64,000 bases of DNA, from assembly GCA_039937655.1 (NCBI GenBank), contig JBDTGA010000006.1:20680-84679 (forward strand), read 5' to 3'. Made by a program: the position numbers and the translations under genes. The number at the start of each line of letters is the position of its first letter. Position 1 is the first letter of the stretch. This DNA comes from Ginsengibacter sp. (GTDB lineage Bacteria > Bacteroidota > Bacteroidia > Chitinophagales > Chitinophagaceae). The notes under the pieces are model-generated. The model made no database searches. It was not told where the DNA came from and saw nothing but the letters and a program-made list of their open reading frames with translations. This document shows positions 3,181 through 61,056 of this stretch, in pieces.

Positions 3181-4215
3181 ATGAACGACATTGCTATAGC
3201 TCCGAAAACATTAACCGCAAAGGATTTTGCAACCGACCAGGAAGTGCGTTGGTGTCCCGGTTGCGGAGATTATTCTATATTGGCACAAGTACAAAAGGTG
3301 TTTCCCACTTTAGGAATACCACGGGAGAATTTTGTGATCATCTCCGGAATTGGCTGTAGCAGCCGTTTTCCCTATTATATGAATACCTATGGCATGCACA
3401 GCATTCATGGAAGGGCCACCGCCATTGCCAGTGGATTAAAAGCTACCCGCCCCGAATTAAGTATATGGATCGTAACGGGCGATGGTGACTGTTTAAGTAT
3501 TGGAGGAAATCACACAATTCATTTATTACGGCGGAATTTTGATGTGAACGTATTGCTTTTTAATAATGAGATCTACGGATTAACGAAGGGACAATACTCT
3601 CCTACCAGTGAACAGAAAAAGATTACCAAGAGTTCTCCAATGGGCAGCATAGACCATCCATTCAATCCGGCAGCTCTTGCTTTGGGAGCAGATGCTACTT
3701 TTGTAGCACGTACAATGGATAGGGATCCAAAACATTTACAGGAAATGCTGTTAAGATCAGCACATCACAAAGGTTCCTCTTTTCTTGAAATTTATCAGAA
3801 CTGTAATATTTTCAATGACGGTGCATTTGAGATCTTCACAGATAAAAAATCAAAAACCGAAGAAACACTATTTTTCGTACAAGGCCAGCCACTGGTCTTC
3901 GGAGCAGAAAAAAATAAGGGAATCCGGCTGAACGGATTGAAACCGGAAGTAGTAGAGCTAAATGGAAATGTAAGCGAGAATGACCTGTGGATTCACGATG
4001 AAAAAGATTTTTACAAAGCGCAGATACTTACAAGGTTTTTTGATGATCCAAAACTGGAACATCATTTTCCTCGCCCTTTCGGTGTTTTTTACGAAGGAGA
4101 AAGGCCCTGTTATGAAGATATCATGACGGGTCAAATCGCTGAAGCGAAATCAAAAAGTGAAGGAGAATTAGACAGACTGTTTCGGGGGAAAGAAGTCTGG
4201 ACTATTACGGAATAA
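3181..4215 (+). CDS. korB: 2-oxoglutarate/2-oxoacid:ferredoxin oxidoreductase beta subunit (TPP-binding)
   Basis: 344 aa. It has the N-terminal RWCPGCGDYSIL motif and a GDGD TPP-binding region (VTGDGDCLSIGGNH), the usual KorB size and pattern. Confidence 0.85.
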   Translation: MNDIAIAPKTLTAKDFATDQEVRWCPGCGDYSILAQVQKVFPTLGIPRENFVIISGIGCSSRFPYYMNTYGMHSIHGRATAIASGLKATRPELSIWIVTGDGDCLSIGGNHTIHLLRRNFDVNVLLFNNEIYGLTKGQYSPTSEQKKITKSSPMGSIDHPFNPAALALGADATFVARTMDRDPKHLQEMLLRSAHHKGSSFLEIYQNCNIFNDGAFEIFTDKKSKTEETLFFVQGQPLVFGAEKNKGIRLNGLKPEVVELNGNVSENDLWIHDEKDFYKAQILTRFFDDPKLEHHFPRPFGVFYEGERPCYEDIMTGQIAEAKSKSEGELDRLFRGKEVWTITE

Positions 4216-4604: not shown

Positions 4605-4735
4605 TACAGTATATTGAGAGATATGTTTTTAATAAACAAACGCTTTTGTTACCGTTTACTAAATGAGTCATACCAATTAATAAATCATAACACCAAATTA
4701 AACTATTTTCACCAATAAATATTGCAAACTTTTTG

Positions 4736-5860
4736 ATGAGTGAAAATAATTTTAACAACCACAATTATACACTCCGTGTTTTAATAGCCCCGCTCGATTG
4801 GGGATTGGGGCATGCAACTCGCTGTATTCCAATTATTAATGATCTCATGGAAAAGGGTTGTGAAGTGTGGATCGCAGCCGACAAACAGGTGCTTTCGTTA
4901 TTAGAAAAAGAATTCCCTTATGCAGTATTTTTACGGTGCAAAGGCTACGAAATCAGGTACAGCAAGCAGAAAAGATTTCTCTCATTAAAAATTATCTCAC
5001 AGATACCCCACCTGTTTTTTTCAATATGGCATGAAAAAGAATGGTTGAAAAAGATGATAAAAGAGTACAGTATTGATGCAGTGATTTCTGATAATCGTTT
5101 TGGAATGCACAACAAAAAAATCCCATCTATTTACATTACTCATCAGCTTTGTATCAAAACAGGGAATAGGATCAGTGATTTTTTTGCTCGAAAAATTCAT
5201 TCCTGCTTTATTAAAAAATATACTCAATGCTGGGTTCCGGATTCTGAGAAATACGAATTGGCGGGAGAACTTTCTCACCCGGGAAAAGTACCTCCCAATA
5301 CTGTTTACATAGGTCCGTTATCAAGATTTTCCCCACTTACACCAGCTCACAAAAACTATGATCTGCTCATCACCATTTCTGGCCCCGAGCCCCAACGAAC
5401 TATTTTCGAAAGAACTCTATTGAAAGAGCTGGAAAGTTTTTCGGGGACCGCTTTTTTGATAAGAGGCTTGCCCGGCGAGCACAATGTATTATCCTTCTCT
5501 AATAAATTTGTAACGATCGTGAACCATCTTCCCGCAAAGGAATTAAACAGGATAATAGAACAATCCGAAATGATCATAAGTAGAAGCGGTTACACCTCTG
5601 TGATGGATTTGGCTGCGTTGAACAAGCATGCTATTTTGATCCCTACTCCCGGGCAAACGGAACAGGAATATCTAGCGAAGTATTTATACGAAAAAAGATT
5701 TTTTTATTCTACAGAAGAAGAAAATTTTTCGCTCAAAAAAGTATTAGAAGACGTGAAGGATTTTGAGTTTAGAAGTATTCCGGTTTCGCACGATGACTAC
5801 AGGAAAACAATTGATGAATTTGTGCTGTCATTAAAAACATTGAAATTTGCACCTCAATAA
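4736..5860 (+). CDS. Glycosyltransferase, GT28/MGT (MurG- or UDP-glucuronosyltransferase-like) family
   Basis: 374 aa. The N-terminal glycine-rich loop (PLDWGLGHATRC) and the C-terminal RSGYTSVMD...PTPGQTEQEYLA region are typical of GT-B family 28-like enzymes. Confidence 0.75.
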   Translation: MSENNFNNHNYTLRVLIAPLDWGLGHATRCIPIINDLMEKGCEVWIAADKQVLSLLEKEFPYAVFLRCKGYEIRYSKQKRFLSLKIISQIPHLFFSIWHEKEWLKKMIKEYSIDAVISDNRFGMHNKKIPSIYITHQLCIKTGNRISDFFARKIHSCFIKKYTQCWVPDSEKYELAGELSHPGKVPPNTVYIGPLSRFSPLTPAHKNYDLLITISGPEPQRTIFERTLLKELESFSGTAFLIRGLPGEHNVLSFSNKFVTIVNHLPAKELNRIIEQSEMIISRSGYTSVMDLAALNKHAILIPTPGQTEQEYLAKYLYEKRFFYSTEEENFSLKKVLEDVKDFEFRSIPVSHDDYRKTIDEFVLSLKTLKFAPQ

Positions 5861-50533: not shown

Positions 50534-51997
50534 ATGGAAAAAAGGATGAAAAAAAAAGAAATTTTAAAAGAACCGTTGCCGGATAGTATTCGTAGCAGGA
50601 GACTGGGGATATTTATTTCTCTTTTTGTTATCTTTTCTGCCTCTCTATTTTTTTCCTGCAAAAAAGATTCTTACATCACAAGCCCGGATGCAAGTTTATA
50701 TACCAGTGCCGACACATTATCTTTTGATACTGTTTTTACAAGCGTTGGTTCCGTAACACAATCTTTCAAAATATTTAATAACAATAATCAAAAACTTCGT
50801 CTATCCCGGGTTGCGCTTTCAGGAGGGTTGTCATCACCATTCAAAATAAATATAGACGGAACGTCTGCCCCCGAAGCAGATAACATAGAAATAAATCCAA
50901 ACGATAGTATGTACATCTTTGTACAGGTAAATGGGAACCCTAACGGAGCTACTCTTCCTTTCATCCTCAGCGACAGTATCCGGATAGATTATAATGGGAA
51001 TAAAAAATTTGTACAATTACAGGCCTACGGCCAAAACGCCGTTTTTCTGAAAAAGGCACAACTCACAGGAAATGTGACATGGGACAAGACGCTGCCTTAC
51101 GTGATCATCGGAGGAATACAAATAGACGCCGGTTCCACACTCACAATCTCTGCCGGAACAAAAATCTTTTTACACGCAGATGCTCCATTTCTGGTGGATG
51201 GTACATTAAAAATAAATGGAACGAAAGAGGGGCCCGTTATTTTCACGGGAGACAGAATGGACGAAGATTACAAAGACCTACCAGCGAGTTGGCCCGGAAT
51301 TTATTTTCGTGGTACGAGTGAAAATAATACTCTGAAACATACCATCATAAAAAATGCTTACCGGGGAATCATTGTACAAGACCTTTCTTCAACACCTAAC
51401 CCAAAACTCAATTTATCCCAATGTATTATTGACAACATTTATGATGCAGGAATCACAGGGATCAATACCAATATCTACGCAGATAATTGTCTCATCTCTA
51501 ATTGCGGAAGCAATCTGTCGCTTGCCATGGGCGGTGATTACCGTTTCATAAACTGCACGGTTGCCTCCTATAATAACACATACATTACTCATAAAAATCC
51601 TGTTCTGCAATTATCAGATTCTTACATAGAAGGTGCCACCGTTTATTATGCGGCATTAAATGCTCTTTTTCAAAATTGTATTTTTTGGGGAGATGGCGGA
51701 ACCGTTGATGATGAAATCACAACAAATAAACAAGGCCCAAACGCATTCTCCGTTTCTTTCGATCACGTTTTGTACAAAGCTAAAAATGACATCAGCAACG
51801 CGACATTCATTTCTTCCATAAAAAACGAGCAACCTATGTTCGACAGCATTGATGCATCAAGGAACATTTATGATTTTCATTTTAATAATCATCCCAACTC
51901 GCCTGCTGTAAATGCAGGAGTGGTTACCCCATTTCTTTATGACCTGGAAGATAAATTAAGAGGAGCAACGCCAGATATTGGGTGTTACCAGAGATGA
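50534..51997 (+). CDS. Lipoprotein with right-handed parallel beta-helix-like repeats, function unknown
   Basis: 487 aa with a lipobox-like LFFSCKKDS and repeated N/G/I-rich beta-helix-like segments. Confidence 0.65.
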   Translation: MEKRMKKKEILKEPLPDSIRSRRLGIFISLFVIFSASLFFSCKKDSYITSPDASLYTSADTLSFDTVFTSVGSVTQSFKIFNNNNQKLRLSRVALSGGLSSPFKINIDGTSAPEADNIEINPNDSMYIFVQVNGNPNGATLPFILSDSIRIDYNGNKKFVQLQAYGQNAVFLKKAQLTGNVTWDKTLPYVIIGGIQIDAGSTLTISAGTKIFLHADAPFLVDGTLKINGTKEGPVIFTGDRMDEDYKDLPASWPGIYFRGTSENNTLKHTIIKNAYRGIIVQDLSSTPNPKLNLSQCIIDNIYDAGITGINTNIYADNCLISNCGSNLSLAMGGDYRFINCTVASYNNTYITHKNPVLQLSDSYIEGATVYYAALNALFQNCIFWGDGGTVDDEITTNKQGPNAFSVSFDHVLYKAKNDISNATFISSIKNEQPMFDSIDASRNIYDFHFNNHPNSPAVNAGVVTPFLYDLEDKLRGATPDIGCYQR

Positions 51998-52157
51998 TGT
52001 TTCAAAAAAGAAATCTTTAATAATCGTTCACTTGCCGTTTATCTCTTCGCAATGCTGCCTGCTACTATTTAAAAAAATAATTATATCCTCTGCCCCTTTG
52101 TCATCAGATTTATAGGTATATACATTGTCTTTTTCATAAGCTGCACTTCAGATTATT

Positions 52158-52656
52158 TGTATTTAGGGTCTGCTGATTATGTCAAGAACTAATCATAAAC
52201 ATGAAATGAGCCGATATCTCACAGCTATTCATATTTCAGCTCATGTTATATGAAAAGCTAAAAATAGGGCCTAAAATTTCTTGATAAGGTACGGTCTGTA
52301 TTATGAGATAGAAAGTATGCTATTCAGCTAAGAGTCCCCGTGGCGCGGGCCGGACAAATCCCGAAAGCTTTCGGAAGAGCGATCAGGTCCATTGATTTTT
52401 TTGCCTGCCCCGATTACCTTCGGGGTTTCTTCTGAGCGAAGTCGAAGTGCATCAAGGCAAAAGAAAAAACAAAGAAACAGCAATAACAAAAGAGATTTTC
52501 GAAACCCTCAGGGATTACCTTCACTAGATATAATCTGAGATTAGGTGTAAAGGTTTTCGATGCAATCATAGTATTTCCTTGCACTCGATTACGGTGAAAT
52601 TCAACGGGAAGCAAGACTGTAAAAAATTCTCATTTAATCGGCAGACCCTATTTACA
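52158..52656 (+). ncRNA. Candidate large structured ncRNA (~490 nt) of unknown class; the alternative reading is a MITE-like element with terminal inverted repeats
   Basis: A 715-bp ORF-poor gap between convergent genes. A 16-bp closing helix pairs 52164-52179 with 52635-52650; its single U-G fits only the plus-strand RNA. Several internal helices and a GC-rich island (52331-52460) lie within it. Confidence 0.4.
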
Positions 52657-52714
52657 TGACGAAAATATTGCTTGTAGTATCTTCTCATAAACCAATCCCG
52701 GAGAAATTTTTTGT

Positions 52715-53410
52715 TTAAAAATTCATATAATCATCCACAATCATGTCCGCAATTGAAAGCTCTTCTCTGGTTTGTGTCGTAGCAATAGCGATCACTTTCA
52801 TCCCTGCGGCTTTTGCAGATTTTATCCCTACAACCGCATCTTCAAAAACCAGACAGTTTTTTGGTAAAACATTCAATAAGGACGCCGTTTTGAGATAGAT
52901 TTCTGGATCGGGTTTCCCTTTGGTAATATGTGAAGAGTTGACAACTGCTTTAAAATATTTTTGGATCGGGACATTTTGAAACATAAAATCTATATTTGGC
53001 TGAATGCCAGATGTGGCAATTGCCATCGGAATATTTTTATCCTTCAACATTTCCAAAAAATCAAGTAATCCTTTTACCGGCTTAATAAAGGGTTCATATA
53101 TTTTTCTGTAAACCGCTTCTTTTTCCAAAGAGTATTTCAATATTTCTTCCTCACTCAATTTTCTTTCGTAGATATACTCAATTACGTCTTTATTGGTGCG
53201 GCCGTTGATGTTTTTATTGTATTCTTCTTCCGAAATATGTCGTCCGATATTCTTTAAATATTCCAGCCAGCTTTTAAGATGGTACGGGTTATTGTCCAAT
53301 AAAGTTCCATCAAGGTCAAAGATTACCGCTTGAGTGTCAAACCTCTTCAAAATCGTGTTTACCCTTTTCTGCAGCCCGTTCTCAGTAGTTTCTGTCATTA
53401 ATTCAATCAT
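52715..53410 (-). CDS. HAD-superfamily hydrolase (beta-phosphoglucomutase-like subfamily IA)
   Basis: 231 aa with motif I (FDLDGTLLDN), TSG, and KGKPDPEIY followed by FEDAVVG. Confidence 0.8.
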   Translation of the reverse strand: MIELMTETTENGLQKRVNTILKRFDTQAVIFDLDGTLLDNNPYHLKSWLEYLKNIGRHISEEEYNKNINGRTNKDVIEYIYERKLSEEEILKYSLEKEAVYRKIYEPFIKPVKGLLDFLEMLKDKNIPMAIATSGIQPNIDFMFQNVPIQKYFKAVVNSSHITKGKPDPEIYLKTASLLNVLPKNCLVFEDAVVGIKSAKAAGMKVIAIATTQTREELSIADMIVDDYMNF

Positions 53411-60983: not shown

Positions 60984-61056
60984 TGGTGTGGGGCGGGATT
61001 GAACCGCCGACACAAGGATTTTCAGTCCTTTGCTCTACCAACTGAGCTACCGCACC
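60984..61056 (-). tRNA. tRNA-Phe (anticodon GAA)
   Basis: Hand-folded reverse complement: GGTGCGG TA GCTC AGTTGGTA GAGC A AAGGA CTGAAAA TCCTT GTGTC GGCGG TTCAATC CCGCC CCACACC A. All arms are canonical except a C5-A68 mismatch. CCA is not encoded. Confidence 0.9.

Follow-up and report, generated by a model that had tools for sequence, protein, structure and literature searches.

The closest described parallel to the element analysed here is the group of short MITEs of Porphyromonas gingivalis. The families BrickBuilt, MITE239, MITE293/700 and 464/PgRS have TIRs in common with IS5-family ISPg elements, are intergenic and contain no transposase remnant; the families comprise ~10-20 copies per genome, and some carry tandem repeats (PMC4596501). 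The element at positions 52162-52652 of the window (the whole 64-kb stretch of DNA that was analysed) fits this kind. It comes from the same phylum, is short and intergenic, and has IS5-family terminal inverted repeats (TIRs) around an unrelated interior without a transposase remnant. TIR and interior differ, however: the P. gingivalis MITEs have a TIR of the GAGACCTTTGCA type and a different interior, and the internal tandem repeats of some of them have no counterpart in the window element.

Further groups were considered for comparison. Full-length insertion sequences (IS) of the IS5 family in Bacteroidota (NF033578; DUF772 + DDE_Tnp_1_2; loci L047, L057, L083 and L084) share with the element the 16-nt TIR core, a homologous 5' leader with the transposase start, and the TA flanks, whereas the element measures 491 bp instead of ~1660 bp, has no transposase gene and contains, at the corresponding position, an unrelated stretch of ~300 nt. 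Large bacterial RNAs (RNase P RNA, RF00010/RF00011; GOLLD, ROOL, HEARO and OLE) have only a size of ~500 nt and the lack of an ORF in common with it; unlike these, the element gives no covariance-model match, shows no excess interior structure and is unconserved in relatives. It is not an autonomous IS, since it has no transposase, and it is not in any Rfam family. Very probably, 52162-52652 is a 491-bp transposase-less, non-autonomous (MITE-like) derivative of a Bacteroidota IS5-family IS.

The element is situated in the interval 51998-52714, which is the largest stretch without ORFs of ≥ 80 aa or ≥ 100 aa in the whole 64-kb window and is bounded by the stop codons of a 487-aa ORF (p487, plus strand) and of a gene for a HAD-family hydrolase (minus strand). 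GC content climbs to ~0.5 around 52300-52450. The features of the locus are as follows:

50534-51997, plus strand: p487, the 487-aa ORF, without a Pfam family.

52160-52161: left flanking TA, either a target dinucleotide that was duplicated or the outermost part of the element itself; TA is found at -4,-3 outside TAGGG in 91/121 family ends.

52162-52179: left TIR, TT-TAGGGTCTGCTGATTA; the 16-mer also ends the full-length IS copies L047, L057, L083 and L084.

52180-52186, minus strand: left subterminal bases TGTCAAG, matching the IS 3' end, the site of the transposase stop codon in full copies.

52187-52487: orphan core of ~300 nt with a GC-richer island and an A-rich stretch, without transposase remnant.

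52396-52466, plus strand: imperfect hairpin domain, delimited by fold z and inverted repeat, with a terminator-like stem-loop at 52407-52426 followed by TTCTTCT; its function is putative.

52488-52634, minus strand: right subterminal region, a homologue of the IS 5' end (leader plus ~25-30 degenerate transposase codons) according to blastn and alignment.

52569-52567, minus strand: vestigial transposase ATG within the right subterminal region.

52635-52652: right TIR, TAATCGGCAGACCCTA-TT, one transition off the family consensus.

52653-52654: right flanking TA, in keeping with the family-wide flank pattern.

52715-53410, minus strand: HAD-family hydrolase gene, convergent with p487.

The ends of the element lie in an inverted repeat (52158-52179/52635-52656) with arms of 22 nt, which are 86% complementary and have 455 nt between them. 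The 16-nt core TAGGGTCTGCTGATTA is present at only two places in the 64-kb window, the second time with one mismatch. An earlier note on this DNA, made from the sequence alone, had described a long-range 16-bp pairing of 52164-52179 with 52635-52650; the repeat is real, includes one mismatch and is the sole such pair in the window. Several other observations of that note were reproduced, namely the largest gap of the window at 51998-52714 by the ORF-length scan, its position between convergent genes, the GC-rich island, a second long-range pairing (located at 52201-52210/52629-52638) and a repeated decamer, GATTACCTTC, which occurs twice in the element. Short pairings as such are commonplace here, since the 900 nt examined contain 15 inverted pairs of ≥ 10 nt.

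The origin of the repeat was traced by scanning one genome per GTDB species for the 16-mer TAGGGTCTGCYGATTA, which yielded at least 118 loci (L001-L118). Among the matches listed, the loci belong overwhelmingly to Bacteroidota MAGs (Hanamia, other Chitinophagaceae, Bacteroidales and Saprospiraceae), and many of the matches are ~100-140 nt away from a contig end. The 16-mer recurs many times per MAG in Hanamia SMAG_U7776, Chitinophagaceae CTOTU1239, Bacteroidetes Umea_bin-01667 and Bacteroidales metabat2.99. Matches close to contig ends and in many copies per MAG are the signature of a dispersed, assembly-breaking repeat. The few exact matches in non-Bacteroidota genomes among those listed look like chance.

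In four loci, two inverted copies of the 16-mer bound elements of ~1.66 kb (L047, 428-2093; L057, 200-1858; L083, 433-2087; L084, 2-1660), each of which has a single ORF of 522-528 aa. The ORFs of L047 and L057 carry the Pfam domains DUF772 and DDE_Tnp_1_2 and pass the NCBIfam equivalog NF033578 'IS5 family transposase' with 368-386 bits at a cut-off of 275; both fail the IS1182 and ISNCY models. Because it bounds ~1.66-kb elements with ORFs of this type, the 16-mer TAGGGTCTGCYGATTA is the TIR of an IS5-family insertion sequence. The TIR string was not found in a literature search. Full IS copies from different genomes have 65-72% DNA identity along most of the transposase gene. Shorter derivatives with the same TIR core were seen in Bacteroidales MAGs, i.e., L041 (2-291, 290 bp) and L103 (5849-6468, 620 bp); in neither was a transposase remnant detected, and between the TIRs they have nothing in common with the core of the window element.

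Similarity between the window element and the full-length IS extends beyond the TIR on both sides. In the orientation of the window, the transposase of the full copies is encoded on the minus strand and runs from the right end to the left end. When the right end was aligned with the IS 5' ends, the CAT at 52567-52569 came to lie under the transposase start. Using blastn, positions 52572-52656 were 73-75% identical to Hanamia/Chitinophagaceae IS ends over 85-88 nt, and with permissive scoring positions 52488-52650 matched the IS of L083 with 64% identity over 168 nt (E 3e-12). At the left end, 52163-52186, a match of 23-24 nt to full IS copies has 92-96% identity with their left ends; it consists of the TIR plus TGTCAAG, and neighbouring family ends read TGTCAAG or TGTCAG. 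Within the TIR core, the left arm is identical to the ends of the full IS, and the right arm has one mismatch. Hence, both TIRs have been retained in the element, together with ~24 nt from the 3' end of the IS and ~165 nt from its 5' end, in which the vestigial transposase ATG lies. No intact DDE transposase ORF is present between the TIRs of the window element, the longest interior ORF encoding 66 aa (52614-52414, minus strand), and its length of 491 bp is within the range of MITEs (about 50-1000 bp). In the shared end, the window element has no more than 64-74% identity to the nearest full-length IS that was found. A closer parent IS was not detected in the genome collection with the 20-mer CGGTGAAATTCAACGGGAAG from the IS-homologous end, which gave seven chance matches of 20-24 nt (Neobacillus, Mycobacterium and others). 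The 24 nt at 52588-52611 are found exactly in four Neobacillus loci (L151, L153, L154 and L156) without similarity beyond; most likely, this is a chance match which is repeated because the four genomes are related.

The sequence of the insertion site is TG-TA-TT-[TAGGG…CCCTA]-TT-TA-CA, of which the element comprises 52162-52652. The outside flanks of 121 family ends were aligned. T is found at -4 in 94/121 and A at -3 in 103/121 ends, and both together, i.e., TA at -4,-3, in 91/121; positions -2 and -1 vary between A and T, and no conserved bases follow farther outside. All four elements that are readable on both sides have flanks of the form xTA…TAx', in which x' is complementary to x: TTA/TAA in L047 (428-2093), CTA/TAG in L057 (200-1858), CTA/TAG in L103 (5849-6468) and GTA/TAC in the window (52158-52656). 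Between TA and TAGGG lie two bases which, when both ends of an element are compared, do not always complement each other. These flanks suggest a TA-centred palindromic target preference, in which this IS5-family lineage targets NTAN' sites and duplicates TA, the duplication being read from the family-wide flank pattern; alternatively, TA could be the outermost bases of the element. A TA within a palindromic target would account for the imperfect extension of the pairing to 52158/52656 (TGTA…TACA). The previous remark that no target-site duplication is to be seen is probably wrong, given the TA at both ends as in 91/121 family ends. A 4-bp YTAR duplication as in IS5 proper was considered and rejected, because in none of the complete copies do the 4 nt on each side form direct repeats. 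Several IS5-family subgroups generate 2-4-bp duplications at TA-containing targets. For the window, the predicted empty site before insertion is CTTCAGATTATTTGTACATGACGAAAATATTGC.

Conservation of the locus was determined in related genomes. The HAD protein retrieved 27 loci, with 80% aa identity for the best full-length match and 86% for one partial match (Ginsengibacter, Hanamia). The gene order gpd–p487→←HAD–gpx is conserved in 13 loci of Hanamia, Ginsengibacter and other Chitinophagaceae, and the convergent spacer in these 13 loci is mostly ~10-220 nt long. None of the 13 syntenic spacers has detectable similarity to the window spacer, the relatives being distant (HAD 57-86% aa identity), and absence in relatives at this distance shows no precise empty site. 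A single syntenic copy in related genomes, which, with compensatory changes, had been named as the mark of a structured RNA, was therefore not seen at any of the 13/13 conserved gpd–p487→←HAD–gpx loci. Absence from all of these spacers indicates that the element is lineage-specific at this site and is not a syntenic RNA gene.

The long-range pairing had led the earlier note to propose, as one possibility, a large structured ncRNA gene on the plus strand, either undescribed or a rearranged RNase P-like relic, which would be closed by a helix of 16-22 bp. Folding of the whole element against dinucleotide shuffles is in line with this proposal at first sight, with z -4.77 for the plus strand and -2.95 for the minus strand. 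When the repeat arms were left out (52185-52630), the values fell to z -0.94 (plus) and -0.26 (minus), so that the signal of the whole element stems from the terminal repeat. The many internal helices which had been drawn are thus no more than expected by chance. The local domains 52256-52329, 52331-52380 and 52513-52590 fold no better than expected by chance (z +0.4 to -0.6); the domain 52396-52466 reaches z -3.53 (plus) and -2.65 (minus) and the domain 52198-52260 about -2.6, both having been picked after the fact. The mismatch in the helix is a G-U pair on the plus strand, which had been taken to favour that strand. It carries no weight, since any single transition turns a pair into a wobble on one strand and into a C-A mismatch on its complement, and the right arm is merely one transition off the family consensus T.

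All 4227 families of Rfam 15 were searched in the whole window at gathering score and in 51900-52800 at E ≤ 10. RNase P (RF00010/RF00011), GOLLD, ROOL, HEARO and OLE gave no match in 51900-52800 even at E ≤ 10, and the perceived resemblance to the S-domain and the P1/P4 topology of RNase P was not substantiated. The permissive scan of this region returned only eukaryotic snoRNA/miRNA models (E 4.5-9.5) and IS009, all far below gathering scores. In addition, the arms of the supposed helix are the TIRs of an IS which encodes a transposase and occurs at more than 100 loci, and the right third of the element is recognizable as an IS leader plus the beginning of the transposase gene, read on the opposite strand. 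The syntenic spacer of 13 relatives does not contain the locus, and no homologue of the core for a covariation test was found by exact 20-mer scans and blastn on the fetched loci. The ncRNA gene is largely refuted already and highly improbable. As far as can be told from sequence comparison, the 'closing helix' is a DNA-level inverted repeat, i.e., a transposase binding site, and not an RNA structure under selection. The other possibility raised in the earlier note, a non-autonomous element with TIRs of ~20 bp, agrees with the TIR being that of full IS5-family IS ends, with the IS homology of the right ~165 nt and with the absence from the syntenic site in relatives.

The part of the element which is not explained by the IS is the core at 52187-52487. 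It resembles no part of the IS, either in DNA sequence or at the protein level, and no transposase remnant was detected in the interior by tblastn with five family transposases, down to word size 2 and E ≤ 100. Four interior ORFs belong to no Pfam family, and an exact-protein look-up of two interior ORFs gave no copies on record. The exact core 20-mer GCCCCGATTACCTTCGGGGT had one chance match (L119) in the collection of one genome per GTDB species, and GAGCGATCAGGTCCATTGAT had one chance match of 23 nt (L149) in the exact 20-mer scan of metagenome contigs; with these two interior 20-mers and blastn on the fetched loci, the search of the collections has low sensitivity, and diverged homologues could be missed. 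In blastn of the element against the fetched genome loci, the core gave only chance matches of 20-24 nt, and a blastn search of plasmids in distant mode gave no match to the element.

These results bear on the history of the element. A full-length IS5-family IS could have lost its transposase in situ by deletion or replacement and decayed in place, leaving a single-copy relic rather than a member of a true MITE family. Blastn of the element against the 64-kb window gave the self match only, i.e., one copy, the interior was not found elsewhere (exact 20-mers in the genome and metagenome collections; blastn of plasmids), the remnant of the transposase start is degenerate, and one TIR has drifted from the consensus, all of which is compatible with a dead IS. 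Decay in place is opposed by the ~300-nt core, which has no collinear trace of a transposase, whereas full copies keep 65-72% DNA identity to one another. A MITE is defined by multiple copies, and further copies elsewhere in the host genome would be expected for the MITE-like element.

An independent assembly of the same strain is relevant to this point. The Logan contig L147 (SRR26386579) is 100% identical to 54920-52576 of the window and carries the HAD gene (from M5) and GPx. Exact-protein look-ups of HAD from M1, of p487 with two alternative starts and of gpd gave no record. It ends inside the element, 4 nt from position 52572, where the ~74% similarity to IS ends begins. Contigs from a de Bruijn graph end where the graph branches. 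The break at an IS-homologous end, taken with this rule, suggests that a second sequence in the SRR26386579 sample shares the right end of the element, which speaks against a single relic; the break could instead reflect low coverage and not a repeat. As a variant within the main explanation, the dead IS is possible though doubtful, and it differs from the MITE-like element in history and copy number only, not in kind.

For the MITE-like derivative, the following course of events is proposed. The element would have inserted at the TA of a TGTACA palindrome situated between the convergent genes for p487 and the HAD hydrolase, a position in which no gene is disrupted, and TA would have been duplicated on insertion. 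Having no transposase of its own, the element could move only with that of a full-length relative, which would be located elsewhere in the genome and would supply the DDE transposase in trans. The conserved TAGGGTCTGCYGATTA ends would be bound and cleaved by this enzyme, and the element, excised or copied, would be inserted at a new TA. The ~300-nt core would sit in the place of the transposase gene.

The MITE may also contain a functional module in its core, either a plus-strand terminator (52407-52426) ending read-through from p487, or a small RNA or short ORF expressed on the minus strand from a retained IS promoter. In a pattern scan, a terminator-like hairpin followed by a T-rich tail was found on the plus strand at 52407-52426 inside the element, and no other terminator-like site is present between the p487 stop codon and the element, so that transcription of p487 may terminate within it. 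A pattern match of this type is no evidence on its own, with ~0.6 terminator-like sites expected by chance in the stretch scanned. As regards the minus strand, the 66-aa ORF (52614-52414) has its start within the retained IS leader, in frame with the vestigial transposase ATG and 45 nt upstream, and P. gingivalis MITEs show promoter activity (PMC4596501); the ORFs of the element have no family and no exact copies on record. Overall, a functional module is considered unlikely. A stronger version, according to which the core, including the GC-richer island and the 52396-52466 hairpin domain, is functional cargo spread by the MITE (e.g., a terminator of transcription, a small RNA or a regulatory module of another type), is very unlikely; if true, the element would be a mobile regulatory cassette and not junk.

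For annotation, the non-autonomous IS derivative flags a family of IS5-family elements, autonomous and non-autonomous, which fragment Bacteroidota MAG assemblies; much of the fragmentation of such assemblies appears to be due to this IS. The locus also calls for caution, as the TIRs of small mobile elements can be mistaken for a helix that closes a large RNA, and helices can always be drawn in an AT-rich interior. No long-standing question is opened by the element, and the only residue of novelty is the ~300-nt core.

Some further observations were made on the locus and its surroundings. The sole Rfam match at gathering score in the window is a tRNA gene at 60984-61056 (minus strand, 68.7 bits). 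The spacer between p487 and HAD is enlarged in three relatives, i.e., to ~1000 nt in L125 (~4680-5684), ~470 nt in L130 (~3230-3700) and ~330 nt in L131 (~4650-4981). These three spacers have no similarity to the window element, and no convincing TIR-bounded insertion was recognized in them; the spacer may tolerate independent insertions or hold small unannotated genes. The p487 protein is kept at 66-75% identity in Hanamia, Ginsengibacter and other Chitinophagaceae MAGs, in synteny with gpd upstream and the convergent HAD gene downstream. At its N-terminus, a Cys follows a hydrophobic segment (…LFFSCKKD), which gives the protein a lipoprotein-like look.
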